The position numbers and the translations under genes are program-made. Shown one piece after another: positions 29,467-35,454 of a DNA stretch of 50,329 nucleotides (position 1 is the stretch's first letter; the number at the start of each line of letters is the position of its first letter). Location: NCBI GenBank assembly GCA_903893135.1, contig CAITLA010000065.1, forward strand, positions 1-50,329, written 5' to 3'. The notes below the pieces were generated by a model. It had not been told where the DNA came from, did no database searches, and saw only the letters and a program-made list of their open reading frames with translations. This DNA is from an uncultured Syntrophaceae bacterium. GTDB lineage: Bacteria; Desulfobacterota; Syntrophia; Syntrophales; UBA2185.

Positions 29467-29799
29467 TTATGGCAGGGTTCCTATGAGAAAGGGTCGGTGA
29501 AGTTCACAGGGGATACCCATTATCAGCCAGGAATTGCGGGCGTCCAGTTCCTCGTTGATGCGCGCTTTGGCAGTTTTAACGGTTCCGTCGTCACAGCATA
29601 CTTCGATTAAATAAGGCAGTTCTTCAATCACATCGGGCGGGGCACCGCCTATTTCCTCGCGATAAAAAGCAGAGGCTTCTTCTTCAGTATCGGCGGCAAT
29701 GACTATCTTGTGAATTCTGTATGCCTGCATGTCGAATATAAATATCCCTTCCTTCTTTGTAGCACCATTCACCGGTAATGCACAAACATTATCAAGCAA
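29467..29799 (-). CDS. hypothetical protein (110 aa from TTG; 87 aa if ATG 29730 is used)
   Basis: An ORF convergent with the RND operon. No family recognised. The start is ambiguous: MQAYRIHKIVIAADTEEEA begins at 29730. Confidence 0.4.
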   Translation of the reverse strand: MLDNVCALPVNGATKKEGIFIFDMQAYRIHKIVIAADTEEEASAFYREEIGGAPPDVIEELPYLIEVCCDDGTVKTAKARINEELDARNSWLIMGIPCELHRPFLIGTLP

Positions 29800-29940: not shown

Positions 29941-30474
29941 TTATTTCTTTTCATACGGCAATTCTTGTATAAAATTACGAAGACGCTTTTCTGCAAGTTT
30001 TGCCTTTTCCGGACTGGTGAATAGATCAATTAGAAAATCATCGATGCCTTGAAAAAATGCCTCTTTTAGAGCTGGAACAGAGACCAAGACTAACTCTTTT
30101 GATATAGTTGGGGCGTAACGCACTTCTGGCAGTGCTTTGTCCATATAACCCACCATTCGGCAAATTCCTTTTCTGCTCAAATTGGATATTACGCCGTATG
30201 AATGAAGCATCGCACAACGTGCTCCGTAAAGATCAAGTCCTGTTAACTGTTCTTGGCACGGGAAGTTTATATAACGTTCTGCCCAATCAACAAAATCATC
30301 TCTTGTTACGTCTTCTTGCTCAGCGGGCATGTTCAAATATGCCATCGAGTCTATACCAGAAAGAATCAGGATGACTGCCGCAGAAAGACAATTATTCTCG
30401 ATGCTGACTTGTATCCCTTTTTTGATTCCACCGTAAATTGCATTTATGATGGGATCCCTTAAGATGTCTTTCAT
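29941..30474 (-). CDS. hypothetical 177-aa protein, third gene of the AT-rich cassette
   Basis: The ORF lies 34 nt downstream of the 964-aa gene. The product looks soluble and helical. No family recognised. It contains one Rx4H string (GARCAMLHSYG). Confidence 0.6.
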   Translation of the reverse strand: MKDILRDPIINAIYGGIKKGIQVSIENNCLSAAVILILSGIDSMAYLNMPAEQEDVTRDDFVDWAERYINFPCQEQLTGLDLYGARCAMLHSYGVISNLSRKGICRMVGYMDKALPEVRYAPTISKELVLVSVPALKEAFFQGIDDFLIDLFTSPEKAKLAEKRLRNFIQELPYEKK

Positions 30475-30508
30475 ATCATTTCTTGCTTAAGTAAAGACTT
30501 GACCCTAT

Positions 30509-33403
30509 TTATATATCATAACGTGAGAGCAGATCTTGATATTCATAATATCTTCGACTCAACAAATAATTAACAAGATGTTTGACCACTTCTCTAATCT
30601 TAGGATCAGAGCTTTGAAAAGCCTTTGTCAATATCGTTCTTGTGTAATCACGCCATCCTAAAATACTCCAACCCTCTCTATCATGACGCGCAATCAATTC
30701 CAAACATTGGATAGCTTCTTTTGGCATCTTGTCAACAAGTACAGCAAGTCTTTCCATGATGAGATTATCTGACTGGGTCTTTCCGGATATCTCTAATGCC
30801 CTCATCATTTGATTGATAGCCCATTTATCATCGAATTTTTCAGAATAGAACCACCAACTAAAAGATCCCATTTCCTCACTATGCTTACCAGGTTCCTTTT
30901 CCGCTTCACCGTGCCTTGTTTCCCAGAGATTTCTTAATCGTAATAGAACTTCAGGTGGCACTTTTCCCACAGTATTTTTAAGACTCCGCCCTATGAACTC
31001 TATAGCGTGGCCCCTAACTGTTGCAGGAGCTTCATTCCAAAAACGGTTGAAAAGACCTTCAGGTTCATCCATCTCAAGTTTTCCTCGCCAGTAGAACGTC
31101 ATTAAATGCTCAGCGAGTCTTTGATCAGGATCAGCAAGCCGTTTTTCACCTTCCCTGATTTCTCCGAGATGCTCAACGGCGTTTTTGTACTGGTTTCCTA
31201 AGATATCAAAGACATTATTATAAGGCGCGCAAAAGTATAAATAGGCTTCCCATGCTGCATCTTTATATGCCCGATCATGCGGGTCGGTAGGGAATATTTC
31301 GGTAATATGATTTTTCGACCATACTGGATCAAGAAGCACTAACCATGGGAACCAACGGCCATAGACCGAACGGATGGCCAGCGACGAGTCCTTTGAGGTG
31401 TCAAGATGCTCTTCAAGGACTTCACGAACTTCTGACATTGCTTCAAGACCGCGGTTTAAATTTATCTCTTTGTCCGGCAACCGTTGTAAATGCCGACGAA
31501 TCCATAAGGCATACAGAATAACTGCATTCATTGCTTCGCCTCGAACAGAGTTAATAGCTAGTGTGGCAGGATCCATACTCTTGGATTTTTTGTAGCCATC
31601 TTCTGTCTCAGGCGACGGATCAGGATCTTTCGATAAAATATAGAGAATTTTCCAAACTTCTTTACGTTTATTTATTCTGATTTGTCCAATGCCCTTTTGA
31701 ACGCCCATCTCAAGCAGATTGGCAATATGCCTCCGTGTCCAGCCCCAGTCAGGGTCTATATCACGAATCGAGATATCCCGATCTGGAATTTCACGAGGTT
31801 GCTTCACCACCCAAATACATAGCTTCAAAATAGCTGACCACTTGACCTTTTTTTTCTGTTTCAAAGATTCCTCAAGTCCTGAAATACAAGCACGTACATA
31901 TGTGGGGTCAAGACCAATGAATTTGTCAGCTTCGGTCGAGAAACGAACTGGATCTTTTGCAATGACAGAAGACAACATACGACCAAAGCCTTCAGGAGAT
32001 GATGTCATTGATTCACCTGACGGTTGCCATGACCCTAAGAAATCTATAATCAGGTCGACGGACATCTTTTCTATCTCGTCGGAACTCTTGGGACTCCTTG
32101 GACCGACCCATGTACCACTACTGTACCGGGCAAAATCTGTATGTGCCGGTTCGCCATATATTCGGATTAATAATTCGTAGCGTTCTTTCCATTTACCCGA
32201 AAGATGTTCCTTAAACCACACAAGATGATCCCTTTGCCATGTCTCACGATAGTCGACAAGTTCTTCTTTAGAAGGGCGATTACCTGACGTTTTTTCTCTA
32301 AATTCTGCATAATCAGTCAAATCAGGCCCTTCATCTATCCAGTTAAAAATGACATTCTCCTGTTCTTCACTAAGCTTACCAAAGTGCTTGCCGAGAAGGA
32401 GTGCATACTCATGGGTCATGCTAATGTCATCGAACAGTTCTCTGTCCATCATTTGGGCAGTCAAAATTTTATGTGAAGTATCTGGGAACAAGCGCAGAAT
32501 GTGAAGCGCGATACGGTGGAAAATTTTCCACGGCCGTTTTTCAAAAAGAAGTATAATTTCTGGAATCTTTGTTACATCAGTACGAGCAATAGTTTCTGCC
32601 GCATCCCGAACAGCCGGAACCAAGACATCCTTGATGCTGTAAGTATGATTTTGAGGGTTATCTTCAATCGCGGGACGCCAGATATAGGAATAATCTTCAT
32701 ACACTACTTCATTACGCCGTTGGGATAGATGCACAGCTGATTCAAGAATGTCACAAAGAAGGATTAATGCCCTCATGCCAGCAGCTTCGACAAGAACTGG
32801 AATATGGTTTTTCACTATTTGCTCGTATACCCATTTTTCAAATCGAGCTATCGGTTGAGGAGGAAGGAGGTAGAGATTATTCTTTTCATGTTCAATTTCT
32901 CGTTTTGGATCCGGAAGAACTTCCAAGAGTATAGTCGCAAGTTCGAGCGCTTCGTCAATTTGACCTCCTTTGGCAAGATGTGCCACCAGAGAGCCAAGTT
33001 TTTCTGGCAAAAGAAGATGATAGCGGGAGAGAGCCCATTTTTTGATCTTTTTAATCAAGCGGGCAGCAATTGGTGGGGGCATTTGAAGTGTTGCATCAGC
33101 AAGATCCTCATAAACACGGACATTATCGGTATCTGCCATTTCAAAAATGATTTTACAAACTAGATCAGGTTTTAAGGATGCGATTCTTGCTAAATATCGT
33201 GACTCCGGCCATACTAGAAATTGGATATACTCTCCTTCTCTTTTTAGGGGTGGTGGATCACTAAACATCTTAGCTTCCCATAAATGTTCTAGCCAATCGG
33301 CTGATTTCAAATTATTAAAGAAATACTCGTAATTTGCATAAATCTTGAATGTCTTTAATGCTTTTTGTACAAGCTCTTTCTTAGGTGTTGGCATCACCTT
33401 CAC
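30509..33403 (-). CDS. hypothetical 964-aa protein, probably an all-alpha repeat scaffold
   Basis: This is the longest ORF in the AT-rich segment, and no comparable ORF exists on the other strand. Its start overlaps the upstream 243-aa gene by 23 nt. The product is rich in W, Y, L, E and K. I see no TM segment, signal peptide or catalytic motif. Confidence 0.8.
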   Translation of the reverse strand: MKVMPTPKKELVQKALKTFKIYANYEYFFNNLKSADWLEHLWEAKMFSDPPPLKREGEYIQFLVWPESRYLARIASLKPDLVCKIIFEMADTDNVRVYEDLADATLQMPPPIAARLIKKIKKWALSRYHLLLPEKLGSLVAHLAKGGQIDEALELATILLEVLPDPKREIEHEKNNLYLLPPQPIARFEKWVYEQIVKNHIPVLVEAAGMRALILLCDILESAVHLSQRRNEVVYEDYSYIWRPAIEDNPQNHTYSIKDVLVPAVRDAAETIARTDVTKIPEIILLFEKRPWKIFHRIALHILRLFPDTSHKILTAQMMDRELFDDISMTHEYALLLGKHFGKLSEEQENVIFNWIDEGPDLTDYAEFREKTSGNRPSKEELVDYRETWQRDHLVWFKEHLSGKWKERYELLIRIYGEPAHTDFARYSSGTWVGPRSPKSSDEIEKMSVDLIIDFLGSWQPSGESMTSSPEGFGRMLSSVIAKDPVRFSTEADKFIGLDPTYVRACISGLEESLKQKKKVKWSAILKLCIWVVKQPREIPDRDISIRDIDPDWGWTRRHIANLLEMGVQKGIGQIRINKRKEVWKILYILSKDPDPSPETEDGYKKSKSMDPATLAINSVRGEAMNAVILYALWIRRHLQRLPDKEINLNRGLEAMSEVREVLEEHLDTSKDSSLAIRSVYGRWFPWLVLLDPVWSKNHITEIFPTDPHDRAYKDAAWEAYLYFCAPYNNVFDILGNQYKNAVEHLGEIREGEKRLADPDQRLAEHLMTFYWRGKLEMDEPEGLFNRFWNEAPATVRGHAIEFIGRSLKNTVGKVPPEVLLRLRNLWETRHGEAEKEPGKHSEEMGSFSWWFYSEKFDDKWAINQMMRALEISGKTQSDNLIMERLAVLVDKMPKEAIQCLELIARHDREGWSILGWRDYTRTILTKAFQSSDPKIREVVKHLVNYLLSRRYYEYQDLLSRYDI

Positions 33404-34112
33404 CCGCCCTGATTATAGATTTGATCAAATTTAAGTCGGCATAAGTATGAGGTTGCAATCGATCTAGGAAAAATCTTTCCATAGTATGCAACCAAGATTC
33501 GAATTCCACAATATTTGTTAGTTTATCGTGATGGCACACACGAAGAAAATAGTCTCTAATAAAACCCCATTCATCAACACGGAGTTCTTCAATGGGTGAG
33601 GGTAAAGAAAGACCTGTTGGATCGAGGGTTCGTATTAACTTTGCTACTCTAGTCTTAAACTTCGGCCTACTCTCTTTAAACCATTCAAAGAACTTACTGT
33701 ACGCTTTTAAGAATTTTTTTAAACGAACTTCATCCAGTTCGCTACAATCGTCAATCTTTTTTACACCTTTTATAAGCCTATTCCACTCTTTCCCAAGGTT
33801 ATCGACTTTATTGCTCATCTTCTCTGAGCTATAAGGGTCCTTCAGTTCCACATCCATATATGAAGGAGCTTTAGCCATGAGCTCACGCATATTATGGGCT
33901 GATAGAGAAAATCTATCTGGATTAGTTTCATCTTTCAACACCATTAAGGCACCAAGATACATATCAGCTAATAGTGAATTCTTACTTAACAAGGCATCGT
34001 ATAATGCTTTTTGTTGACCATCAAGCTGTGGTGGCTCAGCAATTGGAGGTTCTGGACCTCTAACCTTTTCTAACAAACTACTTTGAGGATTCGATTTGTC
34101 GTGTTTTTTCAC
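33381..34112 (-). CDS. hypothetical 243-aa protein, first gene of the AT-rich cassette (GTG start)
   Basis: An ORF translationally coupled to the 964-aa gene. No family recognised. It contains an Rx5H string (NPDRFSLSAHNMRELM). Confidence 0.6.
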   Translation of the reverse strand: MKKHDKSNPQSSLLEKVRGPEPPIAEPPQLDGQQKALYDALLSKNSLLADMYLGALMVLKDETNPDRFSLSAHNMRELMAKAPSYMDVELKDPYSSEKMSNKVDNLGKEWNRLIKGVKKIDDCSELDEVRLKKFLKAYSKFFEWFKESRPKFKTRVAKLIRTLDPTGLSLPSPIEELRVDEWGFIRDYFLRVCHHDKLTNIVEFESWLHTMERFFLDRLQPHTYADLNLIKSIIRAGEGDANT

Positions 34113-34235
34113 GCATCACCACAAAATTAATTTTTAAGTCTAATGACGACTTGGCAGCATCTTGAATAATAATTGTCAAATGGTCAAGGAATTTATAGAA
34201 ATATAGTTAGATTACCAAAATTGAAAATGCCATCT

Positions 34236-34300: not shown

Positions 34301-34406
34301 AGTATGGAGAAATCTTGAGAATAACAGGTTGACGGAAAGGCGGAAAAATACTATACGTTTCGATAACTGTATAAACATCTAAATATATTTGCCCGGGGGT
34401 AATGTC

Positions 34407-34679
34407 ATGTCCGGAAAATCAGGTAATGCAAAGTCAACGAAAGATGTAGAGCGTGTTGTTGCCGCCTTCAAGGCCCTATCCAACGAAACGCGCTTGGGCA
34501 TCTTTGAAAAGATTCGTCTTGGACGGGCAAAGGCATCACTGAATCAGGAAATACGTCCATCCGTCTGCAATGTGGCCAGCAATTTTGATATTTCCCTGTC
34601 CACGATCTCCCATCACATCAAGGAGCTCCGTAACGCCGACCTTGTCCGCTGCGAACGGCAGGGCCAGACGATCCTTTGA
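34407..34679 (+). CDS. ArsR/SmtB family metalloregulator, ORF ended by an in-frame TGA inside the wing
   Basis: The ORF has the HTH (ALSNETRLGIFEKI...LSTISHHIKELRNADLV) and then CERQGQTIL-TGA. The frame stays open for 19 more sense codons (QPVEETIRMMVDYLTGHRK) to a TAA at 34737-34739. I prefer the ATG at 34407 (GGGGG upstream) to the TTG at 34389. Confidence 0.75.
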   Translation: MSGKSGNAKSTKDVERVVAAFKALSNETRLGIFEKIRLGRAKASLNQEIRPSVCNVASNFDISLSTISHHIKELRNADLVRCERQGQTIL

Positions 34680-34790: not shown

Positions 34791-34818
34791 TTGACAAACG
34801 GAATACTATCACTATTAT
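34791..34818 (+). promoter_or_regulatory. candidate sigma70-type promoter for the membrane / Met-Cys-rich gene pair
   Basis: TTGACA (34791-34796) is followed by a 16-nt spacer and TATTAT (34813-34818). The first 11 nt, TTGACAAACGG, are identical to 34243-34253 inside repeat copy A. Confidence 0.45.
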
Positions 34819-34910
34819 ATATTTCGACAGTCATACAAATATACAAAAGCAATAATTTAACTCCGTTGCTATTTCTCAAGCATGGAAGGGGGGAGGAAAG
34901 GAGAAGTGTC

Positions 34911-35189
34911 ATGTCAATTAATCAAGCGGCATCAAAAAATTTCGGCAATCTGTGTTGTAGGGCCTGGACCCATCAAGGGAATCCTGCTCGAAAAAAGAAA
35001 ATCGGCATTATGCTGGTTACAATCGGCCTGATCTGGTTTGGGGCAAGGATGGGACTGCTCGAATTCTCATGGCTGCAAGCGGTTTACTTCTGGCCCGCAG
35101 TATTGATTCTTCTGGGCGCTTGGATGGTCTATAAAGGGTCCATGCGGGGAATATCAAGGACAAGTGACAACAAAACCAAGGAGGTATGA
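34911..35189 (+). CDS. small two-helix membrane protein (92 aa)
   Basis: GGAAAGGAG lies 7 nt before the ATG at 34911. The product begins MSINQAASKNFGN and has two hydrophobic helices (IGIMLVTIGLIWFGA, VYFWPAVLILLGAWMVY). The track start at 34791 lies inside the promoter region. Confidence 0.65.
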   Translation: MSINQAASKNFGNLCCRAWTHQGNPARKKKIGIMLVTIGLIWFGARMGLLEFSWLQAVYFWPAVLILLGAWMVYKGSMRGISRTSDNKTKEV

Positions 35190-35190
35190 A

Positions 35191-35454
35191 ATGAAAGCAA
35201 TGTTTAGCAAGATGATGGAAGGATGCATGAAGGGGATGTCCGAGGAGGACAAGAAAAAAATGATGGCCTGCTGCGGCGAGAAGATGGCTGCGATGTTCTC
35301 ATCTACGGGAATGAAGGACATGACCGAAGAGGGAAAGAAGGAGATGCGGGAGAAGATGATGGCCTGCTGCGGGAGCAAGATGGAGATGATGTCGGCCTGT
35401 TTTAAGAAGGCAGGTTCAACATCCGATCAGGCGTGTTGCGCGGAAAAGGCGTAA
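35191..35454 (+). CDS. Met/Cys-rich 87-aa protein, putative soft-metal binding
   Basis: AAGGAGG lies 7 nt before the ATG at 35191, which sits 1 nt after the upstream stop. By my count the product has 18 Met and 8 Cys in 87 aa. It has an internal repeat, KKKMMACCGEKM and REKMMACCGSKM, and no signal peptide. Confidence 0.7.
   Translation: MKAMFSKMMEGCMKGMSEEDKKKMMACCGEKMAAMFSSTGMKDMTEEGKKEMREKMMACCGSKMEMMSACFKKAGSTSDQACCAEKA

Follow-up and report, generated by a model that had tools for sequence, protein, structure and literature searches.

Dsr1, or defence-associated sirtuin 1, is a system reported by Gao et al. in 2020 and by Garb et al. in 2022. The sensor that Avs7 has in common with systems lacking an NTPase, Dsr1 among them, detects the major capsid protein of phages (Lee et al., Nature 2026, PMC13581612). 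In SeAvs7 and EcDsr1 this sensor is a bilobed array of helical repeats that clamps newly made phage major capsid protein, its lobes closing on the HK97-fold capsid monomer; in SeAvs7, EF-Tu serves as cofactor (PMC13581612). With split proteins taken into account, 9,097 proteins carry the sensor, and those without an NTPase include one from Streptomyces sp. NBC_00271 that is labelled "HEPN-like RNase" (PMC13581612, Extended Data Fig. 2). The locus considered here lies in a 50,329-nucleotide (nt) stretch of DNA from an uncultured Syntrophaceae bacterium (contig CAITLA010000065.1 of GenBank assembly GCA_903893135.1; the whole of this stretch is called the window below). At its heart are two overlapping minus-strand genes encoding proteins of 243 and 964 amino acids (aa), here termed the module and the scaffold.

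This pair is quite probably a split anti-phage system, in which a sensor of the Dsr1/Avs7 type is coupled to a HEPN-like effector that takes the slot of SIR2. The observations beneath this reading are homology of the sensor, linkage of the two genes, their in-frame fusion in relatives, exchange of the module with SIR2, a defence context in other genomes, and conserved polar residues in the module. Because Lee et al. show capsid sensing and list NTPase-less relatives labelled as HEPN-like RNases, the locus is read as an uncharacterised split member of the sensor family that they catalogued (Nature 2026, PMC13581612). It does not constitute a new type of system. The original prediction for this DNA had proposed an undescribed one, and the sensor family, NTPase-less HEPN-like RNase relatives and split forms included, is already in that catalogue. 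The broader part of the prediction, that an anti-phage or conflict system is encoded here, has fared better: it agrees with a sensor of the Dsr1/Avs7 type, a slot in which SIR2 can replace the module, a patchy spread in both bacteria and archaea, and defence genes as neighbours elsewhere.

The scaffold and its upstream partner

The 964-aa protein, which like its neighbours had been taken as unrecognisable, is matched by a PADLOC model of Dsr1 (PDLC04166) at E 9e-52, with residues 140-896 aligned to profile positions 466-1164 of 1227, that is, to the large C-terminal part of Dsr1 that lies behind the SIR2 domain. Two more PADLOC models of Dsr1 match the protein (E 1e-11 and 1e-5), and the NCBIfam model (NF041818) gives a partial match of 49.6 bits (E 1.3e-13), far under its equivalog cut-off of 1400 bits. 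A Pfam scan of the protein returned no domain; searches of Pfam, PADLOC and NCBIfam found no SIR2 in either the 964-aa or the 243-aa protein and no NTPase family in the former. The string ALEISGKT near residue 875 fits the pattern [AG]x4GK[ST] and was set aside as a chance match, as it falls in the C-terminal repeats and is absent from the family consensus. By profile comparison, the 964-aa protein is a predicted alpha-solenoid sensor of the Dsr1/Avs7 type that has neither a SIR2 nor an NTPase domain.

Comparison with Dsr1 brings out a common plan and several departures from it. The two systems share the homologous sensor, the lack of an NTPase domain, and an order in which the effector stands on the N-terminal side and the sensor on the C-terminal side. 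They differ in that Dsr1 is one polypeptide and the window pair two overlapping genes, in the score of the window scaffold against the equivalog model, and in the content of the effector slot, which in the window holds no SIR2 NADase but an unrelated module predicted to be helical and HEPN-like.

Likeness to Avs7 is seen by another route. A search of plasmids aligned 77-93% of the length of the scaffold with haloarchaeal proteins that carry the annotation of AAA or ATP-binding ATPase. One of these, a P-loop "AAA family ATPase" of Halapricum, has a Walker A motif (GEPGVGKT) within its N-terminal 430 residues, and its C-terminal 925 residues match positions 13-968 of 971 in the hidden Markov model (HMM) of the scaffold (E 5e-73). 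It is through the C-terminus of this haloarchaeal STAND ATPase, and not through SeAvs7 itself, that the sensor type is linked to Avs7, with which the window pair also shares a modular build and interchangeable N-terminal effectors. Unlike Avs7, the pair has no STAND NTPase, so that tetramerisation by an ADP/ATP switch as in SeAvs7 cannot apply as such; its effector is not Cap4, and it is split over two genes.

Homologs of the scaffold number 443, all of them unnamed; most are about 960 aa long, and one subgroup measures about 1130 aa. In data with one genome per species (about 185,000 species genomes), relatives are encoded in 211 stretches whose taxa are scattered over Acidobacteriota, Actinomycetota, Chloroflexota, Planctomycetota, bacteria of the candidate phyla radiation (CPR), Thermoplasmata, Methanothrix and others. 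Relatives on plasmids adjoin transposases, and no scaffold homologs were found in phage genomes.

The genes that accompany the scaffold were examined in 80 scaffold loci with flanks of 6 kilobases (kb), of which 76 were usable. All four proteins of the window's minus-strand cluster, namely the pair and the 177-aa and 110-aa products of two open reading frames (ORFs) downstream of it, served as queries, by tblastn and then by ORF extraction with an iterated HMM. By tblastn the 243-aa protein has matches in 32 of the 80 loci, each immediately upstream of the scaffold. ORF extraction and the iterated HMM raise this to 63 of the 76 usable loci, with the module as a separate upstream gene in 40 (overlapping the scaffold ORF in 38 of them, under a first-start ORF rule) and, in 23, as an N-terminal extension of about 170-320 aa fused in frame. 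The scaffold proteins of about 1130 aa in the database are all such fusions. Viewed from the side of the module, an exhaustive search of 1.84 billion proteins with its profile gave 2390 clusters at E up to 0.001, and among the best 149 matches the scaffold follows directly behind the module in 136, the remainder being short or truncated. The genes downstream of the scaffold differ between loci. By this evidence of gene context, the conserved unit is the 243-aa and 964-aa pair, a "split" two-gene system.

All members of the scaffold and module families carry the label "hypothetical protein" and lack Pfam domains; the reading given here would provide a probable function for a large unannotated family, whose scaffold occurs in at least 211 species genomes and whose module profile reaches the clusters counted above. 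The tight unit of three or four genes in the original prediction holds physically, and its first two genes are conserved together elsewhere, but neither the 177-aa nor the 110-aa ORF has a match in any of the 80 loci. Likewise, where that prediction called for asking which partners co-occur with scaffold homologs, the 243-aa module does so in the 63 loci and the 177-aa protein in none. An early reading that took the 964-aa and 177-aa proteins as the conserved core came from word-index hits (3 for the 243-aa protein, 344 for the 177-aa protein) and was ruled out by the tblastn and HMM searches of the 80 loci; the few word-index relatives of the 243-aa protein are due to the limited sensitivity of such an index.

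Fused relatives provide a bridge to the published catalogue. A 1090-aa protein encoded on a plasmid of Streptomyces sp. NBC_00212 (WP_331721222.1) matches the module (E 2.7e-17) and then the scaffold (E 9e-111), and this protein and the window pair probably belong to the subgroup that Lee et al. labelled HEPN-like from the sister strain NBC_00271. Common to that NTPase-less group and the window pair are the sensor, the absence of an NTPase, and a module that is fused or adjacent. The NBC_00212 protein differs from the window pair in being a single chain with a compact module of about 170 aa; in the window the 243-aa protein has a gene of its own and includes an insert of about 70 aa. In two metagenomic relatives (P0244 and P0253), two tandem modules precede the scaffold in one polypeptide, an arrangement that suggests that the module may act as a dimer.

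A few loci carry additional elements. P0385 (1307 aa) and P0369 (838 aa) have further N-terminal regions ahead of module and scaffold, and that of P0385 includes a string resembling a helix-turn-helix of the XRE type, LTQGELAELMGCSQQYIAGIEKGRE. In three loci of Actinomycetota (L041, L058 and L075), in which the module was not detected, a thioredoxin-like region of about 650 aa (Thioredox_DsbH/DUF255) stands in frame upstream of the scaffold; these apparent fusions were discounted, being probably ORFs that, in DNA of high G+C, run on too far over an adjacent gene. A 299-aa ORF (L014:4452-5351) lies 145 nt upstream of a fused module and scaffold gene, has no match in Pfam or PADLOC and was not seen in the other loci.

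Another kind of variation concerns the effector slot itself. Five loci without the module (L001, L009, L026, L043 and L061) have in its place a stand-alone upstream ORF of about 300 aa with GAGxS, TTNFDP and HG motifs. Those of L001, L026 and L061 are SIR2_2 by Pfam (E 1e-12 to 7e-16), and those of L001 and L026 also match the PADLOC Dsr1 profile at positions of about 121-287; L009 and L043 were assigned to SIR2 from the motifs and from their close resemblance to L001. As L001 encodes the scaffold closest to that of the window among the genome loci (51% identity), near relatives of the window scaffold pair with a SIR2 protein that matches the N-terminal region of Dsr1. The five loci are in effect split Dsr1 systems, and because SIR2 replaces the module upstream in them, the 243-aa family is placed in the slot of the Dsr1 NADase. 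The family thus illustrates modular effector exchange in phage pattern-recognition receptors, one sensor clade being combined either with SIR2 or with a helical module, the latter as part of the same chain or as the product of its own overlapping gene.

In prokaryotes at large, a few percent of genes serve defence. Judged against that general figure, defence genes look enriched among the 126 nearest flanking ORFs of related loci, in which PADLOC matches were accepted at E up to 1e-5. Restriction-modification is represented by type I methyltransferases (4), restriction endonucleases (3) and specificity subunits (2) and by type III methyltransferases (2), and other PADLOC matches are to prokaryotic Argonaute (pAgo; 3), SIR2-APAZ (4), AriA (3), SduA (3), ATPase-Toprim (3) and HEC candidates (3). 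Pfam adds Schlafen/AlbA_2, AbiEii-like AAA_21, SWI2/SNF2, NYN and phage integrases. The named surroundings of the relatives thus include restriction-modification, pAgo, PARIS and Shedu, and known defence genes do adjoin them in other genomes, a point on which the original prediction had asked for a check.

Conservation and fold of the 243-aa module

The module family is divergent, with a mean column identity of 36%, and conserves a small set of polar and aromatic residues. Across 64 module sequences, R76 and H194 are kept in all 64, E77 in 61, W182 in 60 and H73 in 59; at position 67, 39 sequences have R and 5 have K, and the compact fused subtype has T. The motif of the family may be written as (R-x5-)H-x2-R-E plus a distal A-H. 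The original prediction had drawn attention to R...H strings in both small proteins of the cluster, which are indeed present, and had likened them to HEPN active sites. The string in the 243-aa protein, DRFSLSAHNMRE, does lie on the most conserved motif of that protein (H73, R76 and E77), but the paired R67 is only about 60% conserved.

Structural models made with AlphaFold2 (AF2) were obtained for the 243-aa protein and for a compact fused module. In the former, a helical core at residues 30-80 and 180-220 is modelled with a predicted local distance difference test score (pLDDT) of about 90, and the insert is modelled poorly; the latter has six helices, a pLDDT of 84 and a predicted template-modelling score (pTM) of 0.78. 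A Foldseek search of the PDB with the compact model returned nothing at E up to 0.001. Among its top 20 matches, about half are HEPN toxins or domains (7bxo, 8yuf, 2hsb, 4nqf, 7ae8, 1wwp, 6m6u and 6m6w among them; probability 0.85-0.97, E 0.3-0.8), with target-normalised template-modelling (TM) scores of 0.48-0.66, and other helical bundles score equally. HEPN is the only functional class that recurs in these top fold matches. Foldseek found no match among viral structures.

Resemblance to HEPN toxins (HepT/MNT, Csm6, Cas13 and the Agap-HEPN of pAgo systems) includes the small, predicted all-helical bundle for which HEPN structures are the best fold matches, an R-x5-H string at a helix start in most module members, and the proposed role of defence effector; the tandem modules of some relatives parallel the need of HEPN domains for dimerisation. 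The differences are that the module's invariant residues, H-x2-R-E and a distant H, are not the canonical dyad, that the similarity is not statistically significant, and that no Pfam HEPN family is matched. On the models and the conserved residues, the 243-aa module is probably all-helical and HEPN-like and probably a nuclease, and its activity is most likely that of a HEPN-like, metal-independent RNase.

Proposed mechanism and competing explanations

The overlap of the genes probably means that the 243-aa and 964-aa proteins are produced in matching quantities and assemble into a complex, which would probably be the equivalent of the single-chain fusions of relatives. At rest this complex would keep the effector inactive. 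On infection the sensor would bind capsid protein and its lobes would close, the trigger being most likely the phage major capsid protein by homology to the tested members of the family. The complex could then rearrange or oligomerise, bringing effector modules together, and the effector, released or dimerised, would become an active nuclease that cleaves RNA, with growth stopping or the cell dying ahead of phage release. RNase activity and this abortive outcome are what we infer for the pair. As an NTPase-less, HEPN-like pair it would be a simple system, of two genes only, in which to study how the sensing of capsid leads to effector activation where a STAND ATPase is lacking.

Several points weigh against this reading. 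The sensor is just about 20-25% identical to its STAND-linked relatives and the trigger could therefore differ. As in Dsr1, activation would have to proceed without a STAND NTPase, and here the NTPase-less sensor would have to act on an effector encoded by another gene. Near the locus in the window, other defence genes, an integrase, a tRNA and flanking direct repeats were sought and none was found. Searches by sequence and profile with the 243-, 964- and 177-aa proteins and with four family profiles (A1, A2, A5 and A6) found no PDB relatives. The points that bear on the module itself also feed a different explanation, in which pair and sensor are as described and the module has no RNase activity: it might be another enzyme, for example a DNA nuclease like those predicted as partners of pAgo, or a non-catalytic adaptor (an effector-associated or oligomerisation domain), with arrest reached by another route. 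This is possible and clearly the less probable account of the module. It draws on the only sequence-level hints available, a "predicted pPIWI-associating nuclease" family and Aga_Nuclease. Matches to the first (pP_pnuc_1) are sub-threshold, at best E 3.5e-5 and 23.9 bits against a cut-off of 26.3, and span profile positions of about 5-42 of 133; the PADLOC Aga_Nuclease match is also sub-threshold (E 5e-4, positions 10-44 of 267), and both cover about 40 residues around the AH..RE motif. It draws as well on the invariant H-x2-R-E and distant H194, which are not the canonical R-x4-6-H of HEPN, and on R67 of the R67-x5-H73 string, retained in 39 of the 64 sequences and lost to T in the compact fused subtype. 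Moreover, the HEPN matches in Foldseek are not significant (E 0.3-0.8) and are interleaved with vinculin-tail bundles, and Foldseek with the full 243-aa model gave only generic helical noise, owing to the poorly modelled insert. Four invariant or near-invariant polar residues in a family with so low a mean identity nevertheless favour catalysis over a pure adaptor, and no third conserved gene is there for an adaptor to recruit, the downstream genes varying by locus. HEPN alone recurs as a functional class in the top fold matches, and "HEPN-like RNase" is the label given by Lee et al. to what appears to be the same architecture.

Two further explanations dispute not the module but the system. 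That the 243-, 964- and 177-aa proteins, perhaps with the 110-aa protein, form one multi-component system, the 177-aa protein being a second HEPN-like subunit or a regulator, accords with the shared strand, the short 964/177 spacer without a predicted terminator, one promoter-like site before the first gene and one terminator-like site past the last, similarly low G+C, the invariant R86-x4-H91 of the 177-aa family, and an arrangement that is identical across metagenomic contigs of this organism. It is nonetheless very improbable. The absence of the 177-aa protein from the 80 scaffold loci is telling because its family (344 homologs) is conserved at 60-74% identity and so is easy to detect. Nor was a scaffold, a module or any conserved partner found in four distinct contexts (seven loci) sampled for that family, and comparison of the two families by hhalign finds them unrelated (probability 0.2%) although both have R...H strings. 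The partnership of the 177-aa and 110-aa proteins with the pair, as originally predicted, is not sustained by these data. Still harder to credit is the notion that the locus has nothing to do with defence and that the 964-aa protein serves housekeeping as a helical-repeat scaffold, assisted by a small chaperone-like protein, the Dsr1 match reflecting generic repeat similarity. Alpha-solenoids can give spurious profile matches, and in the window no defence or mobility genes adjoin the pair; yet the Dsr1 match covers about 700 profile positions at E 9e-52, and the partner slot of close relatives holds a SIR2 protein that matches the N-terminal region of Dsr1. Also at odds with a housekeeping role are the rarity of the family, confined to 211 of about 185,000 species genomes and scattered over phyla and domains, the defence-rich neighbourhoods elsewhere, and the relatives on plasmids beside transposases.

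Layout of the locus and neighbouring genes

The four ORFs of the minus-strand cluster lie exactly where the original prediction placed them, and its overlap, spacer and intergenic distances are also reproduced (Table 1): the 964-aa and 177-aa genes are separated by 34 nt without a predicted terminator, and 141 nt lie between the 177-aa gene and the 110-aa ORF. The junction of the 243-aa and 964-aa genes, as read from the window, includes GGGCGGGTGAAGGTGATGCCAACACCTAA, and translational coupling of the two genes through their overlap is probable.

Table 1. Coordinates of the features of the locus, numbered from the first letter of the window
Feature	Position	Strand	Basis or remark
Effector-module gene, 243 aa, GTG start	33381..34112	-	ORF list
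Sensor/scaffold gene, 964 aa from GTG 33403, or 961 aa from ATG 33394	30509..33403	-	ORF list
Overlap of 243-aa and 964-aa genes	33381..33403	-	23 nt with GTG 33403, 14 nt with ATG 33394
Sigma-70-like promoter match, upstream of 243-aa gene	34200..34227	-	Consensus scan 9/12; weak evidence
177-aa gene, adjacent	29941..30474	-	ORF list
110-aa ORF, TTG start; 87 aa from ATG 29730 in public contigs	29467..29799	-	ORF list

Gene starts are called in more than one way. Public gene callers choose the ATG of the scaffold, giving 961 aa, and for the upstream gene they vary over several contigs, often taking M51 (193 aa) and also a start that gives 169 aa, against the 243 aa used here. Since homologs of the 243-aa protein keep residues 30-50 (Q34 and L41), the long ORF is favoured. 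Transcription is addressed by consensus matches only, in which there is a single promoter-like site before the first gene and a single terminator-like site past the last; with no terminator between the 964-aa and 177-aa genes, co-transcription of all four ORFs is plausible on these matches. Sigma-70-like matches as good as the one in Table 1 are barely commoner here than in shuffled sequence.

The segment 29941-34112 is AT-rich, as had been noted, with a G+C content of 0.409 against a window mean of 0.492 (standard deviation 0.032 over windows of equal length) and 0.548 in the efflux genes, and less than 1% of windows of equal length in the 50 kb have a G+C content as low. This low G+C runs on to about 37 kb across genes for ArsR, a LiaF-like protein, PAS and PilZ and is therefore not specific to the cassette. 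The neighbours of the locus in the window are an RND efflux system, ArsR, the LiaF-like protein, PAS, PilZ and a DD-carboxypeptidase. The genes of the minus-strand cluster are arranged identically in every metagenomic contig of this organism.

The 177-aa and 110-aa ORFs are best treated, on the gene contexts described, as passengers in the same low-GC islet and not as components of the pair. Members of the 177-aa family come from Nitrospirota, Omnitrophota, Desulfobacterota and other phyla; R86 and H91 are invariant in GLDLYGARCAMLH, as are several Cys, and the protein has no relative in Pfam or the PDB. The genes around the family are unrelated in the four contexts sampled, one of which has an integrase fragment and a BrnT toxin alongside. 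The 110-aa ORF has no counterpart beside other 177-aa family genes and has only sub-threshold Pfam matches. The 177-aa gene may encode a HEPN-like toxin or defence protein that acts alone. A bolder proposal, and a distinctly doubtful one, is that the 243-aa module represents an undefined catalytic fold-family, with H-x2-R-E and a distal H, that is nearly exclusive to this sensor, the pair being activated in a way unlike both Dsr1 and the nucleotide-switch tetramer of Avs7, and that, separately, the 177-aa protein represents a new solitary defence or toxin family. The last part is suggested by the invariant R-x4-H, the high identity across phyla, and the variable, partly mobile contexts.

Beyond the cluster, a 96-aa ORF rich in Met and Cys (window 35164-35454, plus strand) has a repeated motif, KKMMACCG(E/S)KM, and no Pfam match. 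It adjoins the gene of the ArsR-family regulator (34389-34679) and that of the LiaF-like membrane protein (34791-35189), and it may encode a small metal-binding protein under ArsR-type control.

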